Notes: a model not told the origin generated them from the letters alone. Shown: positions 6,144-32,900, counted from the stretch's first letter. The stretch is DNA of 46,608 nucleotides from Rhodospirillales bacterium (GCA_016792605.1 JAEULC010000297.1:1-46608), one strand, 5' to 3'. Program-made: numbers and translations.

Positions 6144-6179
6144 ATCATCCCCTCCTTCGGGCTGTTGGTTCGCGACCGG

Positions 6180-6440
6180 TCAAAAGCCGCGGGAAGAATC
6201 GCAGATATGACTCAATGCCTTTCCGACCATGTGTCGTCGGATTGCCCCCACCACAGGCTTCGCCGGTGTGCGCGGCAACAGCTCGCCCGCAATGTGCGAC
6301 GTAACCGGCACGTTGGGATGACGCCAATACGAATGCGCACCCGGCAGCGGTTCCTCTGCGAAGAAATCGAGGAAGGCGCCTGCGACTGGCCGTTGTCCAG
6401 GGCGGCGACTCAATTCCGGCATGCGCCGGTTCAACTTGGC
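6180..6440 (-). pseudogene. C-terminal remnant of a D-isomer-specific 2-hydroxyacid dehydrogenase (GhrA-like)
   Basis: The translation contains ...AGAFLDFFAEEPLPGAHSYWRHPNVPVTSHIAGELLP...GKALSHICDSSRGF, which is the conserved catalytic-His/C-terminal region of this family. The Rossmann and N-terminal domains are absent because the upstream space is occupied by a regulator gene on the other strand. The 5' limit is approximate. Confidence 0.45.
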
Positions 6441-6661
6441 CGGCGACAGTTGTTGGACTGAGATCATGGGAAGCGTTGGCACGTTGCCGATCCGCCCATC
6501 CAAGTTTATGATCGGAAACTTGAGGCTACTATCGTAAAGTGGGAGACGTCAATGCTAGCGAGCAATGGGCGGTGATAGCTTGGTAGCGAGATAGCCGTTG
6601 TGCGGGATTGTGGGTCGAGGCTATGTCACTCGAAGAGCAACGGTATGGGTGAGTAGGTAGG

Positions 6662-7324
6662 ATGGATTCCGTGCGTTTCGGTCGTTCTTCTAGGAGCCGG
6701 CCCGCCGACGGTCACGGCGACATGATCAGAGTCACGAGAAAAGCGCGCAGCAGCGCGCCGAGCGCGGCCGAACCGATCGATCTCGGCAAGCGGTTGAAGT
6801 TGCTGCGGACGCAACGCGCCTGGACCCTTGCAAACGCCGCTGAGAACACTGGACTTGCCCGCTCCACGCTGTCGAAAATCGAGAATCGGCAAATGTCGCC
6901 GACATTCGAGGTGCTGCAAAAGATCGCGCGCGGTTTCGGTGTCGATATCGCCGACCTGTTCTCGAGCGAGCACCCGCAATCGGCGTCTGGACGCCGCAGC
7001 ATCACTCGAAAGGGTGCTGGCCGCCGGCACGTGACTTCTACGCATCAGCACGAACTGCTCAATGCCGATCTTGCCAGCAAACGCATGCTGCCATTCCGGT
7101 CGAGCATTACCGCCCGCACGCTGGATGCCTCCGGTGGGTGGATGCACCACGATGGCGAGGAGTTTGCCTACATCCTGAAGGGGAAGGCTCGGGTGTATTC
7201 CGAACACTATGAGCCTGTCGATCTCAATCCCGGTGATTCGATATATCTCGATGGGAAGATGGGCCATGCGTTCATATCAATCGGACCGACCGACGCCGTC
7301 GCGCTCTGGGTCGTGACCGCCTAG
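6662..7324 (+). CDS. XRE-family HTH transcriptional regulator with C-terminal cupin domain
   Basis: HTH_3-like segment LGKRLKLLRTQRAWTLANAAENTGLARSTLSKIENRQMSPTFEVLQKIARGFGV. The C-terminal beta-rich cupin-like segment is HHDGEEFAYILKGKARVY...GDSIYLDGKMGHAF. The start is uncertain; an alternative Met lies at 6719. Confidence 0.85.
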   Translation: MDSVRFGRSSRSRPADGHGDMIRVTRKARSSAPSAAEPIDLGKRLKLLRTQRAWTLANAAENTGLARSTLSKIENRQMSPTFEVLQKIARGFGVDIADLFSSEHPQSASGRRSITRKGAGRRHVTSTHQHELLNADLASKRMLPFRSSITARTLDASGGWMHHDGEEFAYILKGKARVYSEHYEPVDLNPGDSIYLDGKMGHAFISIGPTDAVALWVVTA

Positions 7325-7337
7325 TCGGCAGGAGATA

Positions 7338-8498
7338 ATGAAGGTCGAGGAAGCGAAGATATTTGTGGCGCCGACAGGAAATCGGCGCGCGGTACTGCTT
7401 GAGATTACGACCGATACTGGGATCGCGGGTATCGGTGAGGCCGGCGTTGCATACGGTATCGGAGGCAGCGCAGCGGCGGAGATGTTGCATGGAATGGTCG
7501 ACCGATATGTGCTGGGGCGCGATCCGGCGCGGATCGGAGCCATTTGGAACGACATCTACGATCTGTCGTTCTGGACACGCAACGGCGGTGCGATCAGCTA
7601 TTCAGCGTTGAGTGCAATCGAGCAAGCGCTTTGGGACATCAAGGGCAAGGTGCTGGGCGCTCCTGTCTACGACCTGTTGGGCGGGCAGATGTGGGAGCAG
7701 CTTCCCGTCTATGCCAATGGCTGGTGGGTGGGCTGCGACACACCCGACGAGATCGCTCGCGCCGGCGCCGCGACTATTGCACGCGGATACACCGGCCTCA
7801 AATTCTACCCGCTCGGCCTCGCCGATCCCGTGACCGTGGTCCGCCATCCGACGCGCAGGCGACTCGATGCGCGCTACCTACCGCTGGTCTGCGACCGCGT
7901 CGTCGCCTTGCGCGATGCGGTGGGACCGGGGGTCGAGATCATGCTCGATTTCGGCGGGGGACTGACCACGGATCAAGTTCTGCGGATATGTCGCCGTATC
8001 GAACATCTCGATGTTCTGTTTGTAGAAGAGCCGGTCGATCCATCGTCGGTCGACGCACTTGCAAAGGTGACGCGCAGCACGCCGATTGCCATCGCCGCCG
8101 GCGAGCGTTGTTATGGCCGGCCGCAGTTTCACCGACTGCTGCAAAGCGACGCCGTCGACATCATCCAGCCTGATATCTGCAATACGGGCGGCTTGATGGA
8201 GGCGCGTGCGATCGCCGCGATGGCCGAGGTACACAATATTCGCGTCGCTCCGCACAATTACGGCAGCGATTTGGCGACGGCCGTGACGATCCAGTTCGCC
8301 GCCTGCACCCCCAACTTCATGGTGCTGGAATATTTCCCCGATTTCGCCAAGGAGCCCTCCTACCTTCCGGTCCTTGTGCGCTCGCCCGCGGTGCGACAGC
8401 AGGATGGACACATGCCCATCCCATCGGAGCCGGGCTTGGGGGTCGTCCTCAACCATGCGGCGCTGCAGCCGCACCTCTATGCCGTCTGTAAGGCGTGA
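7338..8498 (+). CDS. Enolase-superfamily enzyme (mandelate racemase/muconate lactonizing family; acid-sugar or hydroxyproline-type dehydratase-like)
   Basis: 386 aa. The N-terminal capping domain reads ...LLEITTDTGIAGIGEA...ALWDIKGKVLGAPVYDLLGG. Barrel motifs are MLDFGG, FVEEP, AAGER and DIIQPD, which are the metal-ligand positions of the family. Confidence 0.9.
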   Translation: MKVEEAKIFVAPTGNRRAVLLEITTDTGIAGIGEAGVAYGIGGSAAAEMLHGMVDRYVLGRDPARIGAIWNDIYDLSFWTRNGGAISYSALSAIEQALWDIKGKVLGAPVYDLLGGQMWEQLPVYANGWWVGCDTPDEIARAGAATIARGYTGLKFYPLGLADPVTVVRHPTRRRLDARYLPLVCDRVVALRDAVGPGVEIMLDFGGGLTTDQVLRICRRIEHLDVLFVEEPVDPSSVDALAKVTRSTPIAIAAGERCYGRPQFHRLLQSDAVDIIQPDICNTGGLMEARAIAAMAEVHNIRVAPHNYGSDLATAVTIQFAACTPNFMVLEYFPDFAKEPSYLPVLVRSPAVRQQDGHMPIPSEPGLGVVLNHAALQPHLYAVCKA

Positions 8499-9508
8499 TT
8501 CGGAAGCAATCGCCAAGTCGCAAGGAGATGACCGTGCAAGTGATCGAAGCCGCTCGCGTCCATGAGTTGTTGGCCTATGACGGCCTCATCGAGGCAATCC
8601 GCAAGGCCCATCTCGGCGGCATGCCCAAGATGTCGGACCGGCAAATATTTCAGCAGCCGCACCCGGAGGGCGATCCCGACATTGTTATCGTCCTCCCGGC
8701 TTGGCAGCCGCAGGAAGGAATACTGACCAAGATCGTGACCTCATTCCCGCGCAACCGTTCCCGCCACGGTGTGTCTAACGTTAATTCGCTCTACGTCTTT
8801 GCCAACGGGACAACGGGCGTCACCGAAGCCGTCATCGACGGCGAGGCAATGATCTTTCGCAAGACGTCGGCGGATTCGGCGCTCGGCGCTAGCATACTGG
8901 CCCGACAAGACGCACGAAACTTCCTGATGGTCGGGGCGGGGCTACTGGCGCCTTACCTCGTGCGCGCCCATCTCAGCGTCGGACGCTCGATCGACAACGT
9001 CGTCATTTGGAACCGGACGGCCGCGAACGCTGATCGCTTAGTGGAGATTCTCGGCCAGGAAGGCATCCGCGCGACTGCGACGCGTGACCTGGATGATGCG
9101 GTAACCCGGGCCGACATCATCTCTTGCGCCACTATGGCGGGCGCGCCGATCATCAAGGGCCGGTTGCTGAAGCCCGGCGCTCACGTCGATCTCGTCGGGT
9201 CGTTCACTCCCGAAATGCGAGAGTCTGACGACGACGTGTTACGGCGCGCCGATATCTTCGTCGATCATCGACAGACGACGAAGCGCTCGGGCGAATTTGT
9301 CGGGCCATTCGAGCGGGGCGTGATCACGCCGTCCGATGTTAGGGGCGACCTGTTCGAGCTGTGTCAGGGCAAGGTCAAGGGCCGAACGTCGCCCGACCAG
9401 ATCACGGTCATGAAGAACGGTGGCGGCAGTCATATCGACTACTTCGTGGCTAAATATCTGTTGGATCGGCTTAACCACCGCTCGTTTCAGACGACCTGTG
9501 CGAGTTGA
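8495..9508 (+). CDS. Ornithine cyclodeaminase / mu-crystallin family protein
   Basis: The Rossmann segment FLMVGAGLLAP and the overall length fit the family. GTG at 8495 overlaps the upstream stop (GTGA). Alternative starts are ATG 8528 and GTG 8534, just after an AAGGAG at 8522-8527. Confidence 0.85.
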   Translation: MIRKQSPSRKEMTVQVIEAARVHELLAYDGLIEAIRKAHLGGMPKMSDRQIFQQPHPEGDPDIVIVLPAWQPQEGILTKIVTSFPRNRSRHGVSNVNSLYVFANGTTGVTEAVIDGEAMIFRKTSADSALGASILARQDARNFLMVGAGLLAPYLVRAHLSVGRSIDNVVIWNRTAANADRLVEILGQEGIRATATRDLDDAVTRADIISCATMAGAPIIKGRLLKPGAHVDLVGSFTPEMRESDDDVLRRADIFVDHRQTTKRSGEFVGPFERGVITPSDVRGDLFELCQGKVKGRTSPDQITVMKNGGGSHIDYFVAKYLLDRLNHRSFQTTCAS

Positions 9509-10102
9509 GTAGCGGCCGACATCCACTGCTTACGTGCTGCAGGGCGAGTGAATCCTAGGCAGGTTATCAGCCTTGAACTGACCTTAGGCTGACGGGCAAT
9601 CGGCGTTGCTCGCCAAAAGAGAACCTGATTCCAGACGCGGAATTCGCACCAGGCGATCTGCCCTCCAGACATAGATCGATCGGTGAATTTGGCCAATTTT
9701 GGGTCCTAGAGACAGCCTCTGATCAGGATTGGGCGTACAGGACCGGAGATTCCAGCGTACGCCGGCCTTTCTGGCTACTGAGCCTTTGAAGCCCGGACAG
9801 GGCAGGGGGAGACCGTTTGTATTGACGGAGGGAGAGGAACTGAGATCCAACCTTCTCCATTCTGCGGATCGGGAAACTACCGACTAGCCTCCAGCGCAAC
9901 TTTATTGCGGCGCCCGTCCAACCCTGCAAAACCGCTCAGGTTGACCCGTAAGGCCGATTCCTTCGCGGTGAGCTAGACCCCCGGAGGGCCTCTAGCTTAA
10001 TCGCCACCAGCGGCGCCCTGGCAGCATTGACAAGCTCGGCCGATGGAGTTCCGGCATTTCGATACCTGGAACAGTCTGGAGGTTCGGGGTTATGGTGAGC
10101 GG

Positions 10103-11713
10103 ATGAACCAATTCGGTTTGGCGTTGTTAGTGGCTCTTCTCGGCTTCGTGTTACGTGAGAGCCCGGGTATTGCGCAGGACCAGCCGCCGAGTGCAGCTAT
10201 TGGCGAACCCATCGGCAATCGGTCCTCCCCAACCGGTAGTCAGTCCAGGCAGCCGGAAGACGGGGCCTGCAACAATCCGTATGGCTGCGGTCGAGGCGGC
10301 TCCCAGGCCAACCAGCGACCCAGCGACGTGTACTGCCAGCAGAACCCTGACGGCACCGAGAACCGCGGACCGTATCGCGGTACCGGGCGCAATATCCCGT
10401 GCAAGGTGCAGCCGGACGGCAGCGGGGCCGCCAAAAACACTACCGCCCAGCAGGCGGCGAGCCTCAAGATCGTCTTCAACTACTTCTACATCAACGGCAT
10501 CAACACGCCGCGCGACGGCGTCGGGCGCGGCACCTGCCTCTACGATCGGGGCATGATCAAGGGCAACCTGCTCGATCTCGGCCCGCGCGTCGGGCCCAGC
10601 CTGCAGGTAAAGCCGAAGGACGCGCCAAGTATCAAGGTCGCGGACGAGATCGACAAGTTCGAGATCGAGACCTGCAATCCCTCAGGCACGGAAGGCAAGG
10701 CGCTGCGCGCGGTGCAGACCTTCTGCGAGGACACACGTGACGGCAAGTTCGCCAAGTCGGGACCGTTCACCGAAGATCTGGCCAAGCTAATCTGCATCCA
10801 GGCGGCGGATATCGACAAGTTCCGCGCCCAAGGCCTGGGCGGCATGTCTCCGGGTGACGTCGTCGAGGCGTTCCGCCAATCGCTCGGCCTCGGGTTCACC
10901 GACGTCAAGACCGGCCAACCGATCACCGGCATCGAGTTCACTGCGCGTCAGGACGAAGTCGCCAAGGTCGCGCGCGCGATCACCGGGATCTACGAGCGCG
11001 AACTGGCGACGGCACGCAGACCGGCGCAGCAGGCGAGCGCAGGCGCGCCGGCGTCCGTGCCCGCGCCGGCAGAGAAGAACTTCTTCATCATCCTGGCGCA
11101 TTCGCAGGGCAACTTCTTCGCCGAGGGAGTCGCCTATCGGCTAATGAAGGGCCTCGGCGGCAAGAGCGACGCGGCGGTGTTCCAATCGCGCCTGGGCATC
11201 CTGTCGGTCGCGTCGCCGACCAACTACAAGTCGCTCGATCCCGCATTTCTCGGCCGCGCGGTCAAGCATTTCACTCGCAAGGACGACGGGATTCACGCGC
11301 TCGACGCGCTGGCCTTCCTCGGCAGCCGCGTGCCCTGGCCCGCCGGCTACGACCTGGACGCACTATGGCCATGGAAGGACGAGAAGACGATGCGCGGCAG
11401 CATGGAGCTGGTGCGCGGCCAACTCGACCTCAAGAAGGCCGTCTACAGCCCGTTCTTCGAGACGCTCGGCCTGGCGCCGCCGATCGAGCCCTGCCCAGGC
11501 TGCGGCGCTCTCTACACGCCGCTGATGAACTCGCACCTACTCGACAACTACCTAACCGATCCTGTCGCGGCGAGCCCTAACGTTGCGATCAACCTGAAGG
11601 CAGCACCGCTCTTCGAGAGCGGCAAGCCGTTGTCGGCGACCGCCCCGCCCGTCTTGGCCTTCGTCCGGTCTGATCTTGTGGAACTTAAGAAAGCGCTGAT
11701 GACGGCGCGGTAA
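10103..11713 (+). CDS. Secreted alpha/beta-hydrolase-like protein (lipase/esterase-type nucleophile elbow), function unknown
   Basis: Signal peptide MNQFGLALLVALLGFVLRESPGIAQD. There is a Gly/Cys-containing N-terminal region. The hydrolase-like motifs are FYINGINTP (oxyanion region), ILAHSQGNFF (A-H-S-Q-G elbow, Ser codon 11102-11104) and a late LMNSHLLDNY. About 210 aa are inserted between the first two motifs. The ORF extends upstream to 10043, but the signal peptide begins at the Met at 10103. Confidence 0.6.
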   Translation: MNQFGLALLVALLGFVLRESPGIAQDQPPSAAIGEPIGNRSSPTGSQSRQPEDGACNNPYGCGRGGSQANQRPSDVYCQQNPDGTENRGPYRGTGRNIPCKVQPDGSGAAKNTTAQQAASLKIVFNYFYINGINTPRDGVGRGTCLYDRGMIKGNLLDLGPRVGPSLQVKPKDAPSIKVADEIDKFEIETCNPSGTEGKALRAVQTFCEDTRDGKFAKSGPFTEDLAKLICIQAADIDKFRAQGLGGMSPGDVVEAFRQSLGLGFTDVKTGQPITGIEFTARQDEVAKVARAITGIYERELATARRPAQQASAGAPASVPAPAEKNFFIILAHSQGNFFAEGVAYRLMKGLGGKSDAAVFQSRLGILSVASPTNYKSLDPAFLGRAVKHFTRKDDGIHALDALAFLGSRVPWPAGYDLDALWPWKDEKTMRGSMELVRGQLDLKKAVYSPFFETLGLAPPIEPCPGCGALYTPLMNSHLLDNYLTDPVAASPNVAINLKAAPLFESGKPLSATAPPVLAFVRSDLVELKKALMTAR

Positions 11714-11720
11714 GCGCACG

Positions 11721-12893
11721 TCACGCCTGGCTAAGCAGAGCCTTGCTGCGCTCAAGTTGCGCTCGCTGCTTAAGGAGCGCTGCGTCATTCGCCTGGCTGG
11801 TGACGGTCGCCTGCTGGTCGTACTGCGCTTTCGCTTGCGCGACCTGAGCCTGCTGCTGCTGCGTGGAACCGCCGCTTTGCTGCGCCACCGTGCGCTCGTA
11901 GTCCTGCCGGCGCTGCTGCACGAGCTGGCGCGACTGTGCCTCGGCGCGCTGGTGCTCGGCCAGCTTCGCTTCGCGTTCCTGCACCACGGCCAGCGCCTCC
12001 TGGCGCGAGATCGCCCGCGATCGTGCGCAGGCCTGCAGCGCCTCCAGGTCGCGGCGTTCCTGCTGCTCGATCTGCTGGCGCAGGGTCGCGTTGCGCTGCA
12101 TCGCCTGCACGTCCCGCTGCAGGCTGCCGAGCGCCTGCTGCAGGAAGGCCTCGGCATTGAAGCCATAGGCGTTGAACTGGCGCAGGAAGCCCGAGGCCTG
12201 GCCCTGGAACGCCTGCATCATCGCCGACAGGGCCGGGCCGAACTGCTGCGCGAACGCCTGGCTGGCCTGGTCGTACTGTGAATAGAGCGGCTGGGCGCTG
12301 CCCGCGGCCGGGCATTTGCGCAGCGCCTCGGCTGCCAGTCCCGGCTGACCAGGCGTGGCGAGCGCCTGCTGCGACGGGGGAGCACGCACAACCGCCCCGA
12401 ACTCGGCGAGCAGCGGGCCGAAGACGAAGCCGATGTCGCGCCCGTCGCGGGCGACCCGGTACCAGTCCGTGCCCCGCACCCGGCCGGTCACGGCAATGCC
12501 AGACCCCGCCGCGAGCGTCTCGACCTTCTCCGCCTCCGTGGAAGGGGCGGCACGCACATTCGCGGCGCCGGTAACAAAAGAGTCGCGGTCGAGCGGCTCT
12601 ATGTCGAGAGCGGACGGCGGCGGCTTGGGAGCAGGCGGCGTTGCGGTCGGGAGGGGGGTGGGCGCAGTCGTCGTCGGCGCGGCATTGACGCGCACGCGGG
12701 CGAGCGCGGCGTAGCACCCGTTCGGGAAGGTATCGAGATAGGCCTTGTGGTCCTCGGGCGCGCGGCTGTTCTTGATCGAGTCCCAGAACGCGGCCTCGGC
12801 CGGGTCGACCTTGTCGCAGCCCGCCTGCCCCCAGGCCGGGCCGGCGGCGGCCGTCGCAAGACCGATGGCAACGAGATAGGCGCCGCGCCTCAT
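11721..12893 (-). CDS. Secreted SH3b-domain protein with C-terminal Q/A/R-rich coiled-coil
   Basis: Signal peptide MRRGAYLVAIGLATAAAGPAWGQ. The SH3_3-like segment is ANVRAAPSTEAEKVETLAAGSGIAVTGRVRGTDWYRVARDGRDIGFVFGPLL. The long C-terminal region is Q/A/R-rich and helical. Its ATG overlaps the upstream stop (ATGA at 12890-12893). Confidence 0.75.
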   Translation of the reverse strand: MRRGAYLVAIGLATAAAGPAWGQAGCDKVDPAEAAFWDSIKNSRAPEDHKAYLDTFPNGCYAALARVRVNAAPTTTAPTPLPTATPPAPKPPPSALDIEPLDRDSFVTGAANVRAAPSTEAEKVETLAAGSGIAVTGRVRGTDWYRVARDGRDIGFVFGPLLAEFGAVVRAPPSQQALATPGQPGLAAEALRKCPAAGSAQPLYSQYDQASQAFAQQFGPALSAMMQAFQGQASGFLRQFNAYGFNAEAFLQQALGSLQRDVQAMQRNATLRQQIEQQERRDLEALQACARSRAISRQEALAVVQEREAKLAEHQRAEAQSRQLVQQRRQDYERTVAQQSGGSTQQQQAQVAQAKAQYDQQATVTSQANDAALLKQRAQLERSKALLSQA

Positions 12894-14503
12894 TGCGAGC
12901 TCAGCTCCTGCTTCCACTGCTCGGGGTCGATGCGCCCCTGCGTGCGGCGATGAGCCTCGATGTGCTGCACGAACACGCCGACGAAGCGCTCGACGCGCTT
13001 CACCGCCGGATCGTCGGTCTGCAGCTTCAACAGGTCGAGCTGGCCGCGCAGCGTCTCCGGCGCATAGTCCTCCGCCGCCTGCTTCACGAAGGCGCGATAG
13101 GTGGCGAAATCCTCGTCCTGGCGCCGGCTCCAGTCGTTGATCGCCTGCTTGGTCTCGGCGATGTCCTTGGCCGGAGCGCGGATCTTGGCCTGGTCGACCA
13201 GCAGCTTGCCGTAGGTGCGAATCTCGATCCGGTCGCGGTCGACGTCGCGGCCATAGAGCGCGCCGATGCGGATCAAGGCGTTGGCGGCGCGGTCGCGCTG
13301 CTCATTGCGCACCGCCGTGTTGTTCGACAGCGACCGCGCCAGCTCGTTCAGCCGCTGCTGCGTCGCCGCGTCGAGATTGCCGCGCGCCAGCGCCTCGAGC
13401 TGCTGGATGGGGTCCGCGCCGGGCGTCGGCGCACCCGCGCCCTGCCCGCCAGTGTCGAGCCGCGACAGCGCCTCGTACTCCTCGCGGATCTTGGCGATGC
13501 GCTGCGGTTCGGCCTTGGTCTCGACCGTCGGCGCGAAGGCCAGGCGGAACCCGTTGGTCTCCACGCGGCTCGGACCCTTGCGCGCCAGGTCCATCGGCGG
13601 GTATTCGCGCCGCCAGGCCGCGCCGATCACCGTCTCGCCGATGAGATAGGAGCCGCCCTTGACCACGAAGCCGCCGGCTTGGCCGTGCATGCGTCCGGCC
13701 TTGGTCATGCGGTAGGAATCAAGCACGATCTCCGCTGCATTGCCGATGATGTCGTGCAGCAGCAGCGGGTTCGGCTTCTTGAGCCCGATCGGCCAAAGCT
13801 TGCCATTGGCGGATTTCGCGCCGGCGAACCAGACGGACTCTTCCAGCGGCTGGCCGGGCTCGACGAAGGTCGGGTTTCCGTAGTTCTTGCCCGCCGCCGC
13901 GCCGCCGCGCGCCGCGTATTCCCACTCGACCTCGGTCGGCAGGCGGAAGAAGCCGTTCAGCGTCACCAGGCGGTAGGTCTCGCCTGCCTTGTCGAGCTTC
14001 GTGTCGGCCTCGGCGTAGAGCCACTGCGAGTAACGCTCGCCGAACGAGACCGCGTCGAACCAGCTCAGGCCCACCGCCGGGATCTCGCGGTCGCCGGCGG
14101 GCGCCGCGCAGTCTTTCGGTGGCGCGGTCAGCGTCTCCAGGGCGGCGCGTTGGCCCTGCGTGAACTCGTACTTGGCGAGGAGATAGAACGACGCGGCCTG
14201 CTTCGCCGGGTCGGCCTCGCGGAAGCCGCCGACCAGCGGGATGTCGCGCGGCGCCTCGGCATAGCGTGTGCCCGGGTCGCGATCGTCGCCGAGCGTTACC
14301 GGCGCGTCCGCCATCCAGTTGGTCGCCTCGCCGCTCTTCACCGGAACGACGATCTTGCGGAACACCATGCGCGCGGCGCAGGGCATCGGGAACACGACGT
14401 CGTCCGCGTCCGGCACCGGATTGAAGCGGTCCGCCGTCTGCGCCTGGGCGACCGTTCCGGCCAACAGCGCGAGCAGCGCGGCGGCGGCGACCGTCCTAGA
14501 CAT
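12890..14503 (-). CDS. Periplasmic FGE-sulfatase-fold (SUMF1/EgtB/PvdO family) protein with helical C-terminal extension
   Basis: Signal peptide MSRTVAAAALLALLAGTVAQAQ. Family motifs are SWFDAVSFGERYSQWL, FRLPTEVEWEYAARGG, PNPLLLHDIIGNAAE, VVKGGSY and NGFRLAF. The catalytic Cys pair of true FGE is absent (KGGSYLIGETVIGAAWRRE). There is an 8-nt start/stop overlap with the permease gene. Confidence 0.85.
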   Translation of the reverse strand: MSRTVAAAALLALLAGTVAQAQTADRFNPVPDADDVVFPMPCAARMVFRKIVVPVKSGEATNWMADAPVTLGDDRDPGTRYAEAPRDIPLVGGFREADPAKQAASFYLLAKYEFTQGQRAALETLTAPPKDCAAPAGDREIPAVGLSWFDAVSFGERYSQWLYAEADTKLDKAGETYRLVTLNGFFRLPTEVEWEYAARGGAAAGKNYGNPTFVEPGQPLEESVWFAGAKSANGKLWPIGLKKPNPLLLHDIIGNAAEIVLDSYRMTKAGRMHGQAGGFVVKGGSYLIGETVIGAAWRREYPPMDLARKGPSRVETNGFRLAFAPTVETKAEPQRIAKIREEYEALSRLDTGGQGAGAPTPGADPIQQLEALARGNLDAATQQRLNELARSLSNNTAVRNEQRDRAANALIRIGALYGRDVDRDRIEIRTYGKLLVDQAKIRAPAKDIAETKQAINDWSRRQDEDFATYRAFVKQAAEDYAPETLRGQLDLLKLQTDDPAVKRVERFVGVFVQHIEAHRRTQGRIDPEQWKQELSSQ

Positions 14504-15695
14504 CGCGCAACGCCTCGGAGGGCTGAATGCGCGCCGCGTGCAGGCCGCCGACGCCGGAGGCGACGACCGCAAGCACCAGCGTCGCGCCGGCCGCATAGAC
14601 GAGATGCTGCGGCGCGAGCTGGCAGATCCGCTCGCCCTCGGCCAAGCTGGTGGTGAAGAACCGGTTCACGCTGGCCGCCACCGCCAGATATGCCGCTGTC
14701 GCCAGCGCGCTGCCGACCAGGGCTACCATCGCGGCCTGACAGGCCGGGAACAGCATGCAGCGCGGCGTGTCGAAGCCGACCAGCCGCAACACCGCGATCT
14801 CGCGCCGCTTGCGGTCGACATTGCCCCACAGGCTCGAGGCCAGCGACAGGGCGTAGCCGCCGACGCCGATCGCGGCGACGATCCAGAACACCGCCGTGAG
14901 GTTGCGATCGAGCGCCCGCACCGTCTCGATTTCCGCCGCCCGGGTGCGCACCTCGACGCCCTGGCCCTGCATCCGGTCGCGCAATCCGGACACGTCGTCG
15001 ATCGATCGCGCGTAGAGCCGGAACCCGGCGAAGGCGCGATCGGCGCTCAGCGGCGCGCTGCCCGCCCAGCCCAGCGCCTCGACCGCGCGGCCGTCGCGAT
15101 AGTCCTCGGCAGCGACGAGAAGCTCCAGCGACACGAAGGCCGCGTCGCGGTCGAAGCTCGCGAGCGGCAGCACGCCCGCCACCGTCAGGGGCTGCGTCGC
15201 GCGCTCCGACTGGCCGCGCACCACGCGGGTCAGGCTGCCTTCCAGGGTTGCGCCGGGTGCAATGCCAAGTTTTTCCGCGGCGGACCGCGACAGGACGATC
15301 TGGCCGGTGCCTGTGGGCGCGGGCTGCGCGGCCAACAGCGGGTCGCCGGGCGCGCTCGGCACCAGTTCGACGGTCACCAGCGGCCGGCCCGACTCGGCCG
15401 TATTGCGCAGGAACATCGATGCGGCGATGGCCCGGGTCTGCGGCAGCACGAAGCCCACCTCCGGCCGCGCGGCCATCTGGCGGAACCAGGCCGGATCGAA
15501 GCGCCCGCTCGCCACCGGCAGGATCTGGCGGTTGGCCGGATCCTCGATCAGGCGCTCGCGCATCGTCGTCACCACGCCGTGCTTCAACCCGAACAGCACC
15601 AGCATCGGCGCCAGGATGGCCGACAGGGCCAGGACCAGGCACAGCGACAGGCGCCATTCATGCAGGAAGTCCCGGAGCGCGAGGCCGAACACCAT
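14496..15695 (-). CDS. ABC transporter permease, FtsX/MacB-LolC type (4 TM, large periplasmic loop)
   Basis: 399 aa. TM1 is LSLCLVLALSAILAPMLVLFGL, followed by a periplasmic loop of about 220 aa and three C-terminal TMs. The protein ends ...AARIQPSEALRDV, which is typical of FtsX-family permeases. Confidence 0.85.
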   Translation of the reverse strand: MVFGLALRDFLHEWRLSLCLVLALSAILAPMLVLFGLKHGVVTTMRERLIEDPANRQILPVASGRFDPAWFRQMAARPEVGFVLPQTRAIAASMFLRNTAESGRPLVTVELVPSAPGDPLLAAQPAPTGTGQIVLSRSAAEKLGIAPGATLEGSLTRVVRGQSERATQPLTVAGVLPLASFDRDAAFVSLELLVAAEDYRDGRAVEALGWAGSAPLSADRAFAGFRLYARSIDDVSGLRDRMQGQGVEVRTRAAEIETVRALDRNLTAVFWIVAAIGVGGYALSLASSLWGNVDRKRREIAVLRLVGFDTPRCMLFPACQAAMVALVGSALATAAYLAVAASVNRFFTTSLAEGERICQLAPQHLVYAAGATLVLAVVASGVGGLHAARIQPSEALRDV

Positions 15696-15704
15696 GGACC
15701 CAGC

Positions 15705-16430
15705 CTAGCCCCAAAACGACGAGCGCACACCACCCTCGATCGGCTCCAGCCGGTGCTCCAGGCGCCGCAACTTGAGCCGATCGACGACCGACGCGTCATG
15801 CGTCGCCAGGATCGCGGTGGCGCCGAACTGCTCCACCGTTTCCAGGAACAGGTCGAGAATGCGCGCTGCATTCATCGGATCGACCGAGGCCGTCGGCTCG
15901 TCGGCGACGGCGATGGTCGGCCGGTGCGCCAAGGCCCGGGCGATGGCGACGCGCTGGCGTTCGCCGACCGACAGGGCCGCCGGCCGCTTCGCCAAATGCC
16001 GCGTCAGGCCCAGGCGCTCGGCCAGCGTCGCCACCGTGCCATCGTCGCCAAGGCCCAGCACGCGCCGCGACAAGGCGATGTTGTCGCGCACGCTCAGATA
16101 GGGCAGCAGGCCGCCGGTCTGCAGCACATAGCCGATATGGCGCGCACGAAGCTGCCCCAACGCATCCGTCTTGCCGGCGGACCAGGTCTCCGCCGCGGGC
16201 ACGGCTTCTCCATCGGTCGGCGCGAAGTCGAACCGCACTGCCGCGCTCGGCCGCAGGACAAGCGCCAGCAGGTCCAGGAGCGTGCTCTTTCCACTGCCGC
16301 TTTCCCCGACCAGGGCGATCTTCTCGCCGCGCGCGATCACCAGCCGCGGAATCTCGAGAGCGAAGCGCGACCCCGACGCCGTCCAGTCCTTGCGGACACC
16401 TTCCAGATGATAGACGGGGGGACCCGGCAC
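15705..16430 (-). CDS. ABC transporter ATP-binding protein (LolD/MacB-type)
   Basis: Walker A GESGSGKS, signature LSVGERQR, Walker B IAVADEPTASVD and H-loop ATHD. The GTG start is preceded by GGAG with a 6-nt spacing. Confidence 0.9.
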   Translation of the reverse strand: MPGPPVYHLEGVRKDWTASGSRFALEIPRLVIARGEKIALVGESGSGKSTLLDLLALVLRPSAAVRFDFAPTDGEAVPAAETWSAGKTDALGQLRARHIGYVLQTGGLLPYLSVRDNIALSRRVLGLGDDGTVATLAERLGLTRHLAKRPAALSVGERQRVAIARALAHRPTIAVADEPTASVDPMNAARILDLFLETVEQFGATAILATHDASVVDRLKLRRLEHRLEPIEGGVRSSFWG

Positions 16431-16441
16431 CTGCCGCTCCC

Positions 16442-18448
16442 TTATGGGAGGGCGTCCAGCGGCACGGGATAAACCGACTCGCCGCCCAGCGAGCCGCCGT
16501 CAAGCGCGACCCAGCTATCGGTGTTGTTGTGCAGTTCCTCGTAGAAGCGGATCTTCGACTTCAGGCGGTCGATGAAGGCCTGCTGCTCACCGATGCTCCA
16601 GGACTGCCAGAGATCCTGGCTGATGTTCAGCACGTCGCTTTTATATGGCAGCCCGTCCAGGTATTCGCCGATCAGCCCGGTCTCCGCCAGGTTCTTGGCC
16701 CCGCCCGCGCTCTTGGTCACGCCGGCGACACCGCGCGGCGCCCGCGCCATGGCGGCGGCGGCGCTCTGCAGGTCGGTAAAGAAGCCTTCCGGCGATATCT
16801 GGGCCGCTTCGCCCGCCTTGATGATCGTCTTCAGCACCTGCTGCAGGTCGCTGATCTGGTCGCGCGACATCAAAAGGCGCACGTCCAGCGTCGCCAGCGT
16901 CGGCCGGTCGAAGTCGCGGTCGCTGACCCAGGCCTCGAACACCGGCGGCGCCTGCGTCCCCTTGCGCTTGCCCAGATAGGCGAGCTGCATGGCGTTGCCC
17001 ACCAGCGCCGCCTTGCGGTCGATGCCGGACGCGTCGGACTCCTTCAGCGGCTCGGGCGTGGGCGGCTTTTTGGCCGGCTCGGACAAGGCCTGGCGAACCG
17101 TCTTTACCTGCTGCGTCAAGGACGTCGCCAAGCGCTCGATCGTCTCGCCGAAGCGGTCGACCGAACCGGCCTCGACCGGGATGTACAGGCTGTCCTTGCC
17201 CTGGAAGCGCGTCAGCATCTCGTACTGGGTCGCCGCGGCGGCGTGGTCGCGGGCGCCTTCGCGGGTCTTCAGATGCACGGCGAAGAGCGCAATTCCAGCG
17301 GCCTGTGCGAACTCGCGAACCTCGGAGGTGAACATGCCGCTGCTCGCCAGCGGATGATTGCCTTCGAGCGCGCTGGCATCGGAGATCAGCACCACGATCT
17401 TCGCGGCATACTGGTCCCAGTCCATCTCGGTGAGCGCCGACATCACGCCGGCATAGGCGTCCTCGGGAAGCTGCGGACCTGAGGATACTTTCGCCGGCAC
17501 GACCTGCGCGGTGAGGTCCAGGAATTTCTGGCCTTTGACGCCGTCCTTCAGCGAGGCGAAGGTTCGCGTCGTATATTCAAGATCCGGCACGGACTTTGTG
17601 CTGCTGCGATAGGCGACGAGGCCGAAGCTGACGTCGCCCTCCAGCTTCTCGGCCTCGACCCGCTTGTAGACCCGCGCGATGACGTCGCGCATCCGGTCGA
17701 TATAGGGGCCCATCGTGATCGTCGTATCGACCACGAACACGATGCCGGTCTTGAATCCGACCAGCATGTCCTGCGGCTTCGCCTGGTCGGCGGCGGGCGG
17801 TGGCGGATCGTTCAGCGACACCGAGGCGATCTTCAGCGCCGTGGCCGGCTGGCCCTTCTTGGTAAGCGCCTGCTGGTGCTCCAGGATCGGCAGCAGGTAG
17901 AACTGCTGCTGGATGTCGACATGCTCCGGCGGCTCGATCGACAGGACGGGCGAGTTCGCCGGCGGCTTGCCGGAAATGATCGCTTCGTAGAGCGCGCCGT
18001 ATTTCTGCGCCGGATCCGGCGCCTCGATCAGTTCCATCAAGGGCGGCCGGTCGCGCAGCAGCAGCACGCGCTTGCGGTCGGCCGGATTGGTGAAGGCTAC
18101 GGTCAGGGCCTGTTTCCATTCGATCGCCTGCTTGGCATCGATCCAGCCCGTGGGGCCGGATTCGACCGAGGCGCCCACCTCGATCATGGCGGTGTTCTGC
18201 GCCCGCTTGCGGCCGTACACGTAGAAGACGGTGAACGGGGTGGTGTCGTCCTTCGCCACCGCGGCGTCGGGCTGGGCGTCCTTCAGCACCTTGGTCCCGG
18301 GCCGGGTCAGGACGCGCTGGTAGAGCGTTTTCTTGCCGTCCAACAGCAAAGGCTTGCGATCCTGGGCAAAGGAGGGCCCGGCGGGGATTCCGAGGGCGCC
18401 GACCAGCATCAGCGCGGCGATCAGCCGCCGCTTCGACGAGACCTTCAT
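16442..18448 (-). CDS. Periplasmic von Willebrand factor A (vWA) domain protein
   Basis: Signal peptide MKVSSKRRLIAALMLVGALGIPAGPSFAQD. The vWA-like core is GIVFVVDTTITMGPYIDRMRDVIARVYKRV...VSFGLVAYRS...KIVVLISDA, with a DxTxT variant at the MIDAS position (17714-17728). N- and C-terminal flanking domains have no recognisable family. Confidence 0.8.
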   Translation of the reverse strand: MKVSSKRRLIAALMLVGALGIPAGPSFAQDRKPLLLDGKKTLYQRVLTRPGTKVLKDAQPDAAVAKDDTTPFTVFYVYGRKRAQNTAMIEVGASVESGPTGWIDAKQAIEWKQALTVAFTNPADRKRVLLLRDRPPLMELIEAPDPAQKYGALYEAIISGKPPANSPVLSIEPPEHVDIQQQFYLLPILEHQQALTKKGQPATALKIASVSLNDPPPPAADQAKPQDMLVGFKTGIVFVVDTTITMGPYIDRMRDVIARVYKRVEAEKLEGDVSFGLVAYRSSTKSVPDLEYTTRTFASLKDGVKGQKFLDLTAQVVPAKVSSGPQLPEDAYAGVMSALTEMDWDQYAAKIVVLISDASALEGNHPLASSGMFTSEVREFAQAAGIALFAVHLKTREGARDHAAAATQYEMLTRFQGKDSLYIPVEAGSVDRFGETIERLATSLTQQVKTVRQALSEPAKKPPTPEPLKESDASGIDRKAALVGNAMQLAYLGKRKGTQAPPVFEAWVSDRDFDRPTLATLDVRLLMSRDQISDLQQVLKTIIKAGEAAQISPEGFFTDLQSAAAAMARAPRGVAGVTKSAGGAKNLAETGLIGEYLDGLPYKSDVLNISQDLWQSWSIGEQQAFIDRLKSKIRFYEELHNNTDSWVALDGGSLGGESVYPVPLDALP

Positions 18449-18544
18449 GCGCGCCTTACCCCCGCCCCTGCTGGCATTTGCGTGGCCGGACTATATCATG
18501 CGCCCCAGCGCGGGAAACGCGCCGCAGGGGGAAACATCGTCACG
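18449..18544. promoter_or_regulatory. Divergent promoter/control region between the two operons
   Basis: The 96-bp gap between two divergently oriented start codons must carry both promoters. A CTATAT (-10-like) lies at 18491-18496. No convincing -35 element or operator was identified by eye. Confidence 0.3.
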
Positions 18545-27195: not shown

Positions 27196-28854
27196 ATGGC
27201 CATTCCGCAGCTGATCCGCACCACCGACACCGCCACGCTGGTTCCCGTCGACGTCGGCGGCCAGCCCGTCGTCCGCGCCGCGACCGAGCTGCGCGACTTG
27301 CTGGAAACGCGGCTCGGCCCGGGCTCGTCGGGCTTCTTCGCCGAGCCTGCCGTCGCCGGCCGGCCGGGCGCGGCGGTGGACCGGGTGTCCTGGTTCGGCG
27401 AGCAGCCCGGCGAAGGCCTCGCGCTGTCGGCGCTGACCGGCGCCACCAAGACCCAGGCCGAGGACCAGCTCCGCCAGACCCTGCGTCGCCTCGCCCCGCT
27501 GATCGCCGATCCGCGCCACGGGCCGCTGCTGCGCGCGGCGCTGGTCGTGCCGGGCGACGACGACATCCGCATGGTCGCCGGCGACCCCGTGCTGACAAAC
27601 TGGGGCTTCGCGCCCCAGGGCGTCGACCCCGCCGATCCCGCCCAGATCGACCGCCACTGGCAGGCGACGCTGGGCCGCTTCGCCGCCTTTCCCTCGCCCT
27701 GGCGCGCCGGTGCCGCCGTGCTGCCGCCCGACCCCGCGCCCAACCTCAGCCCACCGCCCGCGCCCGCTGCCCCTGCCATGCCCAGCGCGCCGCCTCCCCT
27801 CGCGGCACCCGCGCCCGCGCTGCTGCCCTGGTACCAGCGCCCGACCGCCTGGGCTGGCTGCGCCGTGGCGATCCTGGTCGCGGGCGTCGCCATCGGCCTG
27901 CTGCTGCGGTTCCTGCTGCCGCCGGCCCAGGTCGCCACGCCCGAGCGACTCCGCGCCCTGATCGCGGCCCAGGTCGAGGTCAATCGCGGCCTCGAGCAGC
28001 AGGTCCAGCGCCTGCGCGGCGCGCTCGCCGGCAATGTCTGCACCGCCGACAACCCGCTCGGCGCCGGGCTGCAACAGCGTCCGGTCTTCCCCGTGGACGG
28101 CGAGCCGAAGAAGACCGAGGCGCCGCCCAAGGACGGCCCCAAGGGCCCGGATGCAAAACCCGATCTGGCGCAGGGCGACCGGCTGATCGACATGATCGAT
28201 GCCGGGACGGTGCTGGTGATCGCCGAGAACAGCAAGGGCACCGGCTTCTTCGTCGCGCCCGGCATGGTGGCCACCAACCGCCACGTCGTCGAGACCGCGA
28301 AGAACGGCAAGGCCTACATCATCAGCAAGGCGCTCGGCCGCGTGGTGCAGGCCGAGATCGTCGCCTCGACGCCGCAGGACCCCGCGCTCCTGCGCGACTA
28401 TGCGCTGCTCAAGGTCGATGGCGCAGCGTTGGAGAAGGTGAAGGTGCTGCGCATCACCGCGACGCTCGATCGGCTCGACCAGGTCGTGGCCGCCGGCTAT
28501 CCCGGCTTCGTCATCAACCACGACGCGCACTTCCAGGCGCTGATGAAGGGCGACCTCACCTCGGTCCCGGACGCCGTGGTCAGCAATGGGGTCGTCAGCA
28601 CGATCCAGTCCCAGCCCCAGGGCGCCGGCGCGATCATCCATACCGCGATCCTGTCGCACGGCAATTCCGGGGGGCCGCTGCTCGACCTGTGCGGCCGCGT
28701 CGTCGGCATCAACACGCTGATTGCGCTGGATGAGAAATCGCACCGCCAGAGCAACATCTCGCTGACCGCGCCCGACCTGGTGCAGTTCCTGAAGACCAAC
28801 AACGTGCCGGTGACGCTGTCCGACGGGCGCTGCCAGGCGCCGAAGCTGGGCTGA
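27196..28854 (+). CDS. Membrane-tethered trypsin-like (S1/chymotrypsin-fold) serine protease with N-terminal cytoplasmic domain
   Basis: 552 aa. The order is an N-terminal domain of about 150 aa, a Pro-rich segment, TM AWAGCAVAILVAGVAIGLLLRFLL, a coiled-coil and then the protease domain. The triad contexts are ATNRHVV (His 28282-28284), DYALLKV (Asp 28396-28398) and GNSGGPL (Ser 28666-28668). Confidence 0.8.
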   Translation: MAIPQLIRTTDTATLVPVDVGGQPVVRAATELRDLLETRLGPGSSGFFAEPAVAGRPGAAVDRVSWFGEQPGEGLALSALTGATKTQAEDQLRQTLRRLAPLIADPRHGPLLRAALVVPGDDDIRMVAGDPVLTNWGFAPQGVDPADPAQIDRHWQATLGRFAAFPSPWRAGAAVLPPDPAPNLSPPPAPAAPAMPSAPPPLAAPAPALLPWYQRPTAWAGCAVAILVAGVAIGLLLRFLLPPAQVATPERLRALIAAQVEVNRGLEQQVQRLRGALAGNVCTADNPLGAGLQQRPVFPVDGEPKKTEAPPKDGPKGPDAKPDLAQGDRLIDMIDAGTVLVIAENSKGTGFFVAPGMVATNRHVVETAKNGKAYIISKALGRVVQAEIVASTPQDPALLRDYALLKVDGAALEKVKVLRITATLDRLDQVVAAGYPGFVINHDAHFQALMKGDLTSVPDAVVSNGVVSTIQSQPQGAGAIIHTAILSHGNSGGPLLDLCGRVVGINTLIALDEKSHRQSNISLTAPDLVQFLKTNNVPVTLSDGRCQAPKLG

Positions 28855-28858
28855 GGCG

Positions 28859-29803
28859 ATGGCGCGCCCGGTCCTCATCGCCCATACGCCGCGCGCGAGC
28901 CTGCGCCCCCTGGGGGCGCAGGGCCAGACCGTCGCCCAGGCCCAGCAGCAGGTCGTGGCGGTGATCGCCGCCAGCCTGACGCCGCGCCATGCCCTGCTCT
29001 TCGCCGAGCCCGTTACCGATCCGGCGCGCGACCAGATCGCCTGGTACACCACCGCGGACGGCAGGGCGCAGCGCCTGGCCGAAGCGGCGCCCGAGGCGCA
29101 GCAGAAGGCACGCGAGGCGATCGCGATGCTGGCCGACGATATCCGCAAGCTCGCCGCCGGCTACATCGCCGCCCCGAACCCGCAGCAGCGCCAGCTCGGC
29201 CAGCTCATCGAGCTGGCGCAGAGCTTCCCGGGTGAGGAATGCGTGTTCCTGGTCGGCGAGCAGCCAGTCATCGTCGCCTGGGGCTATGCCTCGACCGCCG
29301 CCAGCGCCGCCGAGCCGACCACGCTGACCCGCTACGGCGTCCGCCCCGCCGGCCGGACGCGCGCCGCCCGTGCCGAGGCCGATGCCGCCGCCGCCCAGGC
29401 AGCCGCGGCCGCTTCTGCCTCTCGGGCTTCCGCTGCTTCCCGCCACGCGGCGGCGCCCGCCTGGTTGTTCTGGATCCTATTCCTGCTCGCCGGCCTGGCG
29501 GTGGGCAGCGGCGTCGCCTGGGCGATCCAGAGCGGCCCGCTGCCGATCGTCTGGACCGCCGGCGTGCCGACGGTGGTCTCCGACCCGCTCGCCGAGGGCC
29601 GCGCCGCCGAGGCCAAGCTGCGCCAGGCGATCGCGGACCTGTCGCTGCAGATCGCGCAGAAGCAACTGCAATGCACCGTGCCGCCGGCCGACGGACCGGC
29701 CCGGGCGCCGGGCGGTAGCGACTCGCCGCCTCAGACCCGACCGCAGCCAACGGATACGCCGCCGGCTCCGGCAGCGCCACCGGCCGGAGCCACGAAACCC
29801 TAG
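28859..29803 (+). CDS. Bitopic membrane protein sharing the N-terminal domain of the preceding protease; coiled-coil and Pro-rich tail
   Basis: 314 aa, starting 4 nt after the upstream stop. The N-domain aligns with the 27196 protein: LFAEP...IAWY...VFLVGEQPVIVAWGYA against FFAEP...VSWF...IRMVAGDPVLTNWGFA. The TM is WLFWILFLLAGLAVGSGVAWAI. Confidence 0.7.
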   Translation: MARPVLIAHTPRASLRPLGAQGQTVAQAQQQVVAVIAASLTPRHALLFAEPVTDPARDQIAWYTTADGRAQRLAEAAPEAQQKAREAIAMLADDIRKLAAGYIAAPNPQQRQLGQLIELAQSFPGEECVFLVGEQPVIVAWGYASTAASAAEPTTLTRYGVRPAGRTRAARAEADAAAAQAAAAASASRASAASRHAAAPAWLFWILFLLAGLAVGSGVAWAIQSGPLPIVWTAGVPTVVSDPLAEGRAAEAKLRQAIADLSLQIAQKQLQCTVPPADGPARAPGGSDSPPQTRPQPTDTPPAPAAPPAGATKP

Positions 29804-29824: not shown

Positions 29825-30445
29825 CTACTCGATTTTCAGTTCCACCTGAGCGCCGTCTGGCAAATCGGCAATCTGGCGCGCGATGTCGGCGCGAGCGCGC
29901 ATCAGGGGCAACAGGTCCGCGGCGTAGAGGTTGTCGACGGTGAACTCGCCGCCCATTACGAAGGGGATTTTCGGCGCCAGGCGCTGATCGTGCTTCAGTG
30001 CGCCGTGCGTCGCCTGCCATTGATGCGCCAGCGAATGCCCGACCATCACGTCATAGTCGCGCAGCAGCAACGTGACAAACGCCTCGAGCGTGTCCGCGGT
30101 CCGCGTGAGATCGCCGGTCTCGGGATCCAGCGTCCATACCGCGCCGCTTCGCAGGCCGAACTGGCCGCCGAAGATATCCTGACCGAAGAAAAGCACGTCC
30201 GCGGGAATCGCCGGATAGGCGCCGCGCCAGCCATCTGCACTGTTGACGTTCTCTAGCGATAGAGGCTTGGCCGGGTCGCTGGGGTAGATATGAAGCGCCG
30301 CCTCGAACGCCAGAAATCCGTTCCGTTGCGCCAGCAAGCCCGCCAACTCACGCTCAACCGCGTTTGCACCGACAAAAGCCGGCGCGGCCTTGGAGAGGGC
30401 CGGCCCACCGATTTCGAGTAACTTGGAAACAGACGTGGAGGACAT
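29825..30445 (-). CDS. SMI1/KNR4 (SUKH superfamily) immunity-like protein
   Basis: 206 aa, cytoplasmic (no signal peptide). SUKH-like features are LAGLLAQRNGFLAFEAALHIY and VLFFGQDIFGGQFGL..GAVWTLDPETGDL...TLEAFVTLLL. The C-terminal segment is PFVMGGEFTVDNLYAADL. It starts 3 nt after the stop of the nuclease gene. Confidence 0.6.
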   Translation of the reverse strand: MSSTSVSKLLEIGGPALSKAAPAFVGANAVERELAGLLAQRNGFLAFEAALHIYPSDPAKPLSLENVNSADGWRGAYPAIPADVLFFGQDIFGGQFGLRSGAVWTLDPETGDLTRTADTLEAFVTLLLRDYDVMVGHSLAHQWQATHGALKHDQRLAPKIPFVMGGEFTVDNLYAADLLPLMRARADIARQIADLPDGAQVELKIE

Positions 30446-30448
30446 TCG

Positions 30449-31120: not shown

Positions 31121-31168
31121 GACTGCCGCTCCGTCCGCTGAACGCCAAACTCCGCTGGCGTCTACTCC

Positions 31169-32005: not shown

Positions 32006-32015
32006 CGTCCTGTCC

Positions 32016-32735: not shown

Positions 32736-32900
32736 GTCCCCTCCCATTTGATAGGGTCGGCCCGTGGCGCCGAGGCGCTGAAATGCCTGCGGCGCCCCCG
32801 TTCCCTGTGACCAGCATCACTTGAACGGCGGCGGCCTTCAAGTACTATGCGCCGATCCGGATAGCGGGACAGGAGCGCCATGCTCCACGGGGGTGTGCCG

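Follow-up and report, generated by a model that had tools for sequence, protein, structure and literature searches.

A 46,608-nucleotide stretch of DNA from a Rhodospirillales bacterium (GCA_016792605.1 JAEULC010000297.1:1-46608; hereafter the window, with coordinates counted from its first letter) carries four consecutive minus-strand genes that encode, in transcription order, a von Willebrand factor A (vWA) protein, an ABC ATPase, an FtsX permease, and a protein of the formylglycine-generating enzyme (FGE) fold. A sequence-only reading had placed these four genes correctly. Our analysis puts them in a wider setting: the cassette is half of a conserved cluster of ~10 genes built around SrfA, SrfB, and SrfC (SrfABC), and the locus represents, in rearranged form, a known but functionally uncharacterised type of cassette. 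We consider it probable, at roughly 60%, that the cassette supplies the SrfABC system with its periplasmic and inner-membrane half, forming a portable trans-envelope sensor and transducer built like TagQRST-PpkA of Pseudomonas aeruginosa. For more than 20 years, SrfABC has figured in catalogues as a ‘virulence factor’ without a mechanism; the value of the locus is that it ties SrfABC to a TagRST-like envelope sensor and yields the testable idea that SrfB and SrfC respond to an envelope signal.

Co-inheritance and alternative partners of the cassette

The sequence-only reading had proposed phylogenetic co-occurrence as a check on the cassette, and the counts bear the association out. The window proteins were compared by tblastn with 80 loci from other species, and counting was limited to loci with enough flank (67 downstream; 61 upstream, with at least 8.5 kb). 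Downstream of the vWA gene, the ABC and FtsX genes are each present in 66/67 loci and the FGE gene in 48/67. Upstream, SrfB and SrfC are encoded on the same strand in 48 of the 61 loci. This association is far beyond chance. The usual arrangement is a single operon, SrfA-SrfB-SrfC-(Sel1/TM)-vWA-ABC-FtsX-FGE, followed by lipoproteins, of which a glycine-zipper lipoprotein comes after FGE in at least 48 loci and a second small lipoprotein comes next in at least 25. The locus in the window shares the defining content of the srfABC-associated accessory cassette, namely vWA, a Lol-like ATPase and permease, and a SUMF1-family gene beside srfA, srfB, and srfC.

The family is large and is also found on plasmids. 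Its vWA protein is conserved over its full length, with at least 837 database matches, and relatives are encoded in at least 588 candidate stretches from species-representative genomes. Annotated copies of the srf and cassette operon are found on plasmids of Klebsiella pneumoniae (IncFIB/IncHI1B), Haematospirillum, and Cereibacter. Matches to the vWA gene occur on 114 Klebsiella plasmids in PLSDB, making the cassette clinically widespread. On one of them, the large IncFIB/IncHI1B plasmid pKPN-065 of K. pneumoniae (L081), srfABC and the cassette are bracketed by insertion sequence elements; the 113 others are mostly typed as non-mobilizable. A large FGE cluster (P0231) and the Cereibacter plasmid had been candidates for type VI secretion system (T6SS)-linked relatives of TagR and PpkA, and both proved to be Srf-linked.

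SrfABC is one of several partners. In four loci (L052, L088, L089, L090), from a gammaproteobacterial metagenome-assembled genome (L052), Thiocystis violascens (L088, CP003154), Allochromatium warmingii, and Inquilinus, a Hanks kinase with a Pkinase-transmembrane (TM)-Sel1 architecture directly precedes vWA-ABC-FtsX-FGE. The A. warmingii cassette is followed by a glycine-zipper lipoprotein. The Inquilinus locus places ClpV, VgrG, an IcmF-related gene, and an M23 peptidase ahead of the kinase and cassette, and other Inquilinus loci have PP2C, VgrG, and IcmF-related neighbours. The kinase-linked proteins share 40–42% (vWA), 52–54% (ABC), 47–50% (FtsX), and 32–34% (FGE) identity with those of the window, the same as the Srf-linked orthologues. 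In Thiocystis, the kinase-linked cassette is flanked by genes for a 1615-aa nSTAND1-WD40 protein and a TIR_2-FHA protein (4904-9751, 17801-18595 of L088), and an FHA-TIR protein beside a Hanks kinase suggests a phospho-dependent, immune-type output. Some cassettes without Srf genes stand alone behind a small TM/Sel1 protein.

A Sel1/TM protein connects these settings. In other species, its gene lies immediately upstream of the vWA gene; in the window, it follows srfC on the plus strand. The TM and Sel1 part of the window protein is homologous to the C-termini of the Hanks kinases (E-values 2e-7 and 6e-8), to the product of the Klebsiella gene between srfC and vWA (4e-6), and to that of the small gene ahead of a stand-alone cassette (3e-12). 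The Sel1/TM protein is a conserved fifth member of the cassette. The homology, together with the different partners of orthologous cassettes, points to one conserved periplasmic machine that is connected to different outputs by a Sel1/TM protein whose cytoplasmic head is exchangeable. The same putative sensor cassette is wired to SrfABC, to Hanks kinases or T6SS genes, or to nothing. The loci provide natural ‘split’ versions of PpkA, in which the vWA and FGE-fold proteins are each free and the Sel1/TM relay carries interchangeable cytoplasmic heads; they could be used to dissect the roles of these parts.

Features of the cassette proteins

The vWA protein is predicted to be exported, with a signal peptide (...SFA/QD). 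Its Pfam VWA match is weak (17 bits, under the cut-off), and a PDB sequence search with the family profile found nothing. The protein has an N-terminal β-rich domain (residues ~30–210), a vWA domain (~230–455), and a C-terminal helical domain, and its AlphaFold 2 (AF2) model was built from 24 homologues (mean pLDDT 75). Foldseek matches the model to integrin I-domains and the vWA domain of the SpaC adhesin, with E-values of 1e-8 to 1e-6 and a TM-score of ~0.7 (TMt) to isolated I-domains. The protein carries conserved residues of a metal ion-dependent adhesion site (MIDAS) type, D241-x-T243-x-T245, S322, and D357, the last two invariant in the 24-sequence alignment; the vWA fold is accompanied by a putative metal-binding site. 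Annotators at JGI and GenBank have labelled homologues ‘PpkA’ or ‘Ser/Thr kinase’. The DTTIT variant of the MIDAS was reported by the sequence-only reading exactly where we find it (17728-17714). Its departure from the canonical DxSxS is mostly a property of the family: across 80 species the position reads DxTxS in 75, DxSxS in four, and DxTxT in none, so that only the last Ser-to-Thr change, a conservative one common to the window protein and its closest relative, is specific to the lineage.

The FGE-fold protein has a signal peptide and a clear Pfam FGE-sulfatase match (83 bits). The stretch KGGSYLIGETVIGAAWRRE is encoded at 13660-13604. Alignment to Streptomyces coelicolor FGE (6muj) puts Ile288 at the first catalytic Cys, and CxxxxC spacing puts Ile293 at the second. 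Among 24 aligned homologues of 26–55% identity, none has a catalytic Cys at either position, while the core fold motifs RLPTEVEWEYAARGG, GN..E, and the invariant R298/E300 are conserved. The protein ends in a helical tail of ~160–200 aa (residues ~379–535; 12890-13370), modelled with pLDDT >90 and present in all 24 homologues. The missing cysteines and the tail had been noticed earlier as unusual, along with Thr in the MIDAS; they are real, and they are traits of the family rather than of this locus. The tail, a helical hairpin and bundle, was also considered as a hidden adaptor, but its Foldseek matches to the α-hairpins of the membrane fusion proteins HlyD, LipC, and EmrA were all non-significant (E-values 0.2–0.7), and the idea was set aside.

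With isoleucines at both Cys positions of the CxxxxC that follows RGGS[YF] in formylglycine-generating enzymes, and no Sulfatase domain in the scanned open reading frames (ORFs) of the window, the protein lacks the marks of such an enzyme. It resembles instead PorK/GldK, PvdO, CarF, and a Treponema denticola variable protein, exported proteins that have the FGE/SUMF1 fold without the two catalytic Cys and use it as a structural or binding domain; its nearest solved relatives, by sequence or by fold, are CarF, the T. denticola protein, and PorK/GldK. Unlike these, the window protein adds the conserved helical tail, and its gene is grouped with those for an ABC complex and a vWA protein. One could still imagine an active modifier that uses other chemistry on the periplasmic SrfA C-terminal domain (SrfA-C) or on the vWA protein, with the ABC complex exporting or positioning the product. 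Modification of periplasmic SrfA-C is suggested in a preprint (bioRxiv 10.64898/2026.09.18.752743), and the retained core motifs would suit an active protein. We regard this as very improbable, given the loss of the Cu-binding catalytic Cys in 24/24 homologues, the non-FGE nature of the closest solved relatives, and the persistence of the FGE-fold protein in kinase-linked cassettes that have no SrfA.

FGE folds and Ser/Thr kinases have also been paired independently. Hanks kinases fused directly to an FGE-sulfatase domain are encoded in the gammaproteobacterial locus (L052, 4379-6739 on the minus strand and 7125-8228 on the plus strand) and in P0293, P0299, P0310, and others. Such fusions are found beside the kinase that precedes the cassette and as its close paralogues.

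The permease has four TM segments with a periplasmic domain of ~230 aa between TM1 and TM2, in agreement with the FtsX layout and large loop described before. Pfam assigns it to FtsX, with a weak additional match to MacB_PCD; its sole PDB sequence match is LolC, and its top NCBIfam matches are lolCE and LolC. The ATPase resembles YbbA, FtsE, and LolD, and NCBIfam also lists MacB among many ABC families. Its signature motif is LSVGERQR; across 79 orthologues, the ABC signature reads LS[IV]GE/QRQR rather than LSGGQ, and nearly all of them retain Walker A, Walker B, and the H-loop. Neither protein reaches the equivalog cut-offs of LolCDE (lolCE, 32 bits versus 362; LolD, 122 versus 308), and the FtsE score is likewise low (134 versus 265). 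Since LolC is the closest solved permease and the nucleotide-binding domain (NBD) is a separate chain, the complex is better described as a type VII ABC system in the style of LolCD and FtsEX than as the ‘MacB-type’ engine of the sequence-only reading.

LolCDE, FtsEX, MacB, and YbbAP are type VII mechanotransmitters that perform work in the periplasm rather than transfer a solute across the membrane. The window complex shares with them the four-TM FtsX topology, the large domain between TM1 and TM2, and an ATPase of LolD/FtsE/YbbA type; it differs in its far sub-threshold scores, its single permease gene, and its LSxGE signature. It also lacks the partners of each: the membrane fusion protein (MFP) and outer membrane factor (OMF) of MacB, the EnvC/amidase partner of FtsEX, and the LolA/LolB logic of Lol.

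Two transport explanations bear on this complex. In the first, a LolF-like permease homodimer and the ATPase would extract a cassette-specific lipoprotein, or membrane-anchored SrfA, from the inner membrane and send it on to vesicles or the outer membrane, with the vWA and FGE-fold proteins as periplasmic chaperones or receptors. The LolC and lolCE matches of the permease fit such extraction, as do the two lipoproteins encoded just after FGE in canonical cassettes, the report of an SrfABC toxin (PMC6950479), and a preprint that proposes export (10.64898/2026.09.18.752743). However, neither lipoprotein has a homologue in the window cassette, the same cassette serves Hanks kinases that bring no cargo to export, the lolCE score falls far below its cut-off, and the corresponding P. 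aeruginosa pair TagTS is described as transmitting a signal rather than sorting (PMC6657622). On balance, Lol-like export is plausible but improbable, and the stronger of the two.

The second explanation has very little to recommend it. Here the complex would be a MacB-type pump of the usual kind for efflux or toxin export, relying on TolC and an unlinked MacA-like adaptor, and the vWA and FGE-fold genes would be unrelated neighbours. The weak MacB_PCD match beside FtsX and the MacB entry among the many ABC families matched by the ATPase are compatible with a pump, and TolC is often encoded elsewhere in a genome. Yet vWA, ABC, and FtsX occur together in 66/67 loci in a fixed order and with coupling, the NBD and permease are separate chains, unlike in MacB, and no partner MFP or OMF gene was found in the annotated or Pfam-annotated orthologous loci examined. 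An MFP-like gene in a related metagenome contig (L086, 13752-18131; a weak match) lies downstream of the SH3_3 gene, where the window has unrelated genes; being directly upstream of ABC-2 transporter genes, it probably partners those and not the cassette. In the window itself, Pfam scans of the ORFs detected no sulfatase, MFP, or OMF domain, as had been noted before. The sequence-only reading had named two outcomes that would speak against it, an alternative catalytic site with a nearby substrate gene and a general linkage to MacA/TolC-type genes; neither was found.

Layout and surroundings of the locus

The srfA, srfB, and srfC half of the cluster lies on the plus strand, diverging from the cassette and beginning 97 bases upstream of the vWA start (Table 1). 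The region in between is presumably a shared promoter region. This divergent layout recurs in two independent metagenome contigs (L086 and L087; 81% and 92% identity). The genes had been described as translationally coupled through 8-nt and 4-nt overlaps. The FtsX stop and the FGE start do share 8 nt (ATGTCTAG), whereas the other junctions are gaps of 11 nt (vWA/ABC, with a GGGAG ribosome-binding site ahead of the ABC start) and 9 nt (ABC/FtsX). The 4-nt overlap (ATGA) couples FGE to an SH3_3 gene beyond the four genes. The SH3_3 gene, also kept in the 81%-identity relative, occupies the slot of the glycine-zipper lipoproteins of other species. It has no significant similarity to either lipoprotein family, and tblastn at 1e-4 found no homologue of either canonical lipoprotein in the window. 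That the SH3_3 protein replaces the lipoprotein functionally is a guess.

Table 1. Features of the SrfABC cluster in the window
Feature	Position	Strand	Basis or remark
Secreted SH3_3 protein, Gln-rich coiled-coil tail	11721..12893	-	4-nt overlap with FGE gene; kept in L086
Secreted FGE/SUMF1-fold protein, 537 aa, TagR-like in component type	12890..14503	-	Pfam FGE-sulfatase, 83 bits
FtsX-family (type VII ABC) permease, 399 aa, 4 TM	14496..15695	-	Pfam FtsX; LolC PDB match
ABC ATPase, 241 aa, separate chain, LolD/FtsE/YbbA type	15705..16430	-	Intact Walker A, Walker B, H-loop
Secreted periplasmic vWA protein, 668 aa	16442..18448	-	Signal peptide, weak Pfam VWA, AF2/Foldseek fold
Divergent intergenic region, 96 bp, from vWA start (18448) to first srfA-C paralogue (18545)	18449..18544	.	
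SrfA C-terminal-only paralogue 1: TM helix and Cys-rich periplasmic SrfA-C	18545..19282	+	NF040486 positions 277-428
SrfA C-terminal-only paralogue 2: TM helix and periplasmic SrfA-C	19344..20321	+	NF040486 positions 219-437
SrfB	20335..23373	+	PF07520, 955 bits
SrfC (Virul_Fac), P-loop NTPase	23384..26029	+	PF10139, 784 bits; motif GPSQNGKS
Sel1/TM adaptor, 371 aa: cytoplasmic N-domain, one TM helix, periplasmic Sel1-like domain	26046..27161	+	
SrfA-N-like domain, one TM helix, trypsin/HtrA-like protease domain	27196..28854	+	
SrfA-N-like domain, one TM helix, short Pro-rich tail	28859..29803	+	

SrfA is split in the lineage of the window: two genes encode a TM helix and SrfA-C only, and two encode the N-terminal part (SrfA-N) and a TM helix only. 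In Klebsiella, one 482-aa SrfA spans the whole NF040486 model. SrfB contains the sequences DFGNARTCG and DVGGGTTD, which may be phosphate motifs of the Hsp70/actin type. PDB sequence searches with SrfB and SrfC found nothing. PADLOC gave no match for vWA, FtsX, FGE, SrfA, SrfB, SrfC, or Sel1/TM, and only generic matches for the ABC and protease proteins.

The srf genes and the cassette lie in a region (~12000-34000) with a G+C content of 0.66–0.75, compared with 0.57–0.65 in the flanks, where ordinary ABC importers and genes of amino-acid metabolism are found. The contrast suggests an acquired island; no tRNA or integrase gene was detected at its edges, and the sole tRNA of the window is a tRNA-Met at 200-276. 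The rest of the island ORFs (10043-11713 and 29825-33872) lack counterparts in the surroundings of other cassettes. Among them, a minus-strand gene (30449-31120) encodes a secreted 223-aa protein that contains a Lys/Ala-rich repeat and matches NucA/NucB DNase weakly (28 bits), directly followed by one for a 206-aa protein without family matches (29825-30445, minus strand); the two may be a toxin-immunity pair. On the plus strand, 10043-11713 encodes a secreted 556-aa Cys-rich protein (10 Cys) with no Pfam or NCBIfam match, in which an AHSQGN motif resembles the GxSxG nucleophile elbow of lipases and esterases.

Proposed action and comparison with known systems

In P. aeruginosa, the lipoprotein TagQ, periplasmic TagR, and inner-membrane TagS and TagT activate the Hanks kinase PpkA on envelope damage (PMC13584744, PMC6657622, PMC7817224, PMC3224232). 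TagR belongs to COG1262, TagS to COG4591, and TagT to COG1136 (PMC13584744). In published accounts, TagTS transmits a signal as an ABC-transporter-like complex (PMC13584744, PMC6657622), and PpkA carries an extracytoplasmic vWA domain that is the target of TagR (PMC3224232). TagQ is a lipoprotein of the outer membrane, likened to the glycine-zipper 17-kDa antigen (PMC3608642). The component types of this sensor of the H1 T6SS threonine phosphorylation pathway are matched one for one: TagR by the periplasmic FGE/SUMF1-fold protein of the window, TagS and TagT by its FtsX/LolE-type permease and LolD-type ATPase, the PpkA ectodomain by its periplasmic vWA domain, and TagQ by the glycine-zipper lipoprotein of most orthologous cassettes. 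The T6SS setting, too, has its likeness in the orthologous cassettes behind Hanks kinases, the Inquilinus one being beside ClpV, VgrG, an IcmF-related gene, and PP2C. Because its parts match this envelope-damage module, a signalling device is likelier than a pump or an enzyme system.

Gene content, co-inheritance, the alternative partners, the dead FGE site, and the export signals are what the data show; what is sensed, which way information flows, and how SrfB and SrfC are affected we infer as follows. The vWA protein and the catalytically dead FGE-fold protein would sense envelope changes or act by binding a ligand of the envelope. In the ABC complex, ATP would drive or reset a conformational change of the large periplasmic domain by mechanotransmission, with no solute moved. 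The Sel1/TM adaptor and the single-pass SrfA fragments may then pass this state through the inner membrane to SrfB and SrfC in the cytoplasm; in the sister cassettes, the relay would end in a Hanks kinase fused to the Sel1/TM protein. The proposal of the sequence-only reading that the ABC engine acts on or through the vWA and FGE-fold proteins gains from the strict co-inheritance, the lack of an MFP or OMF partner, and the match to TagQRST-PpkA components; what it missed was SrfABC and the Sel1/TM protein. A bolder version, which we put forward tentatively and with distinctly less confidence than the sensor itself, is that SrfABC and the cassette form an envelope-breach alarm and not a secreted toxin. 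Such an alarm might sense outer membrane or periplasmic damage caused by phage entry, T6SS/T4SS (type IV secretion system) attack, or antimicrobials. SrfB, as an Hsp70/actin-like ATPase, and SrfC, as a large P-loop NTPase, would then be activated at the inner membrane and lead to repair of the membrane or to an abortive response. Paired with Hanks kinases, this sensor would trigger a T6SS in Inquilinus and, in Thiocystis, signal to FHA-TIR proteins.

Several observations weigh against a Tag-like sensor serving SrfABC. About one-fifth of the vWA-ABC-FtsX cassettes have no Srf genes within 8.5–10 kb, and many of those are also without FGE, so that the core function of the module is independent of SrfABC. 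Even for TagQRST, the mode of damage sensing is unsettled (PMC7817224). In Xenorhabdus, SrfABC is reported to be a tripartite toxin (PMC6950479), and a 2026 preprint reads the ‘Lol-like ABC, vWA and SUMF1’ cassette that flanks srfABC as an export and modification module (bioRxiv 10.64898/2026.09.18.752743). The window has an SH3_3 gene after FGE and no glycine-zipper lipoprotein in the place of TagQ; the 46.6-kb window contains no kinase, FHA, PP2C, or T6SS gene; the gene order differs from tagQ-R-S-T-ppkA; and the kinship with Tag is drawn from domain types, published annotation, and orthologues linked to kinases or T6SS genes rather than from direct alignment to PA0070-PA0074.

Other differences from the Tag system concern its cytoplasmic end. 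The vWA protein of the window is free and secreted rather than fused to a kinase as in PpkA, no kinase domain was detected in the scanned ORFs, and the membrane relay is the Sel1/TM protein; in place of PpkA-Fha1-PppA, the cytoplasmic partner is SrfABC.

The closest comparison is with the srfABC accessory cassettes already in the literature. Campbell et al. (2013) described genes annotated as TagQ/R/S/T- and PpkA-like beside srfB and srfC in host-associated Deltaproteobacteria (PMC3608642), and with the 2026 preprint this means that the linkage of srfABC and the cassette is not new. Those two texts were not found to mention that the FGE cysteines are lost across the family, that a Sel1/TM gene is the fifth member, or that sister cassettes are linked to kinases and T6SS genes. 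In gene content and in its linkage to srfA, srfB, and srfC, the window equals the published cassettes (PMC3608642; bioRxiv 10.64898/2026.09.18.752743) and is a member of their type; it departs from them in its inverted halves, its SrfA split into N-only and C-only proteins, its SH3_3 gene in place of the lipoproteins, and its DxTxT MIDAS.

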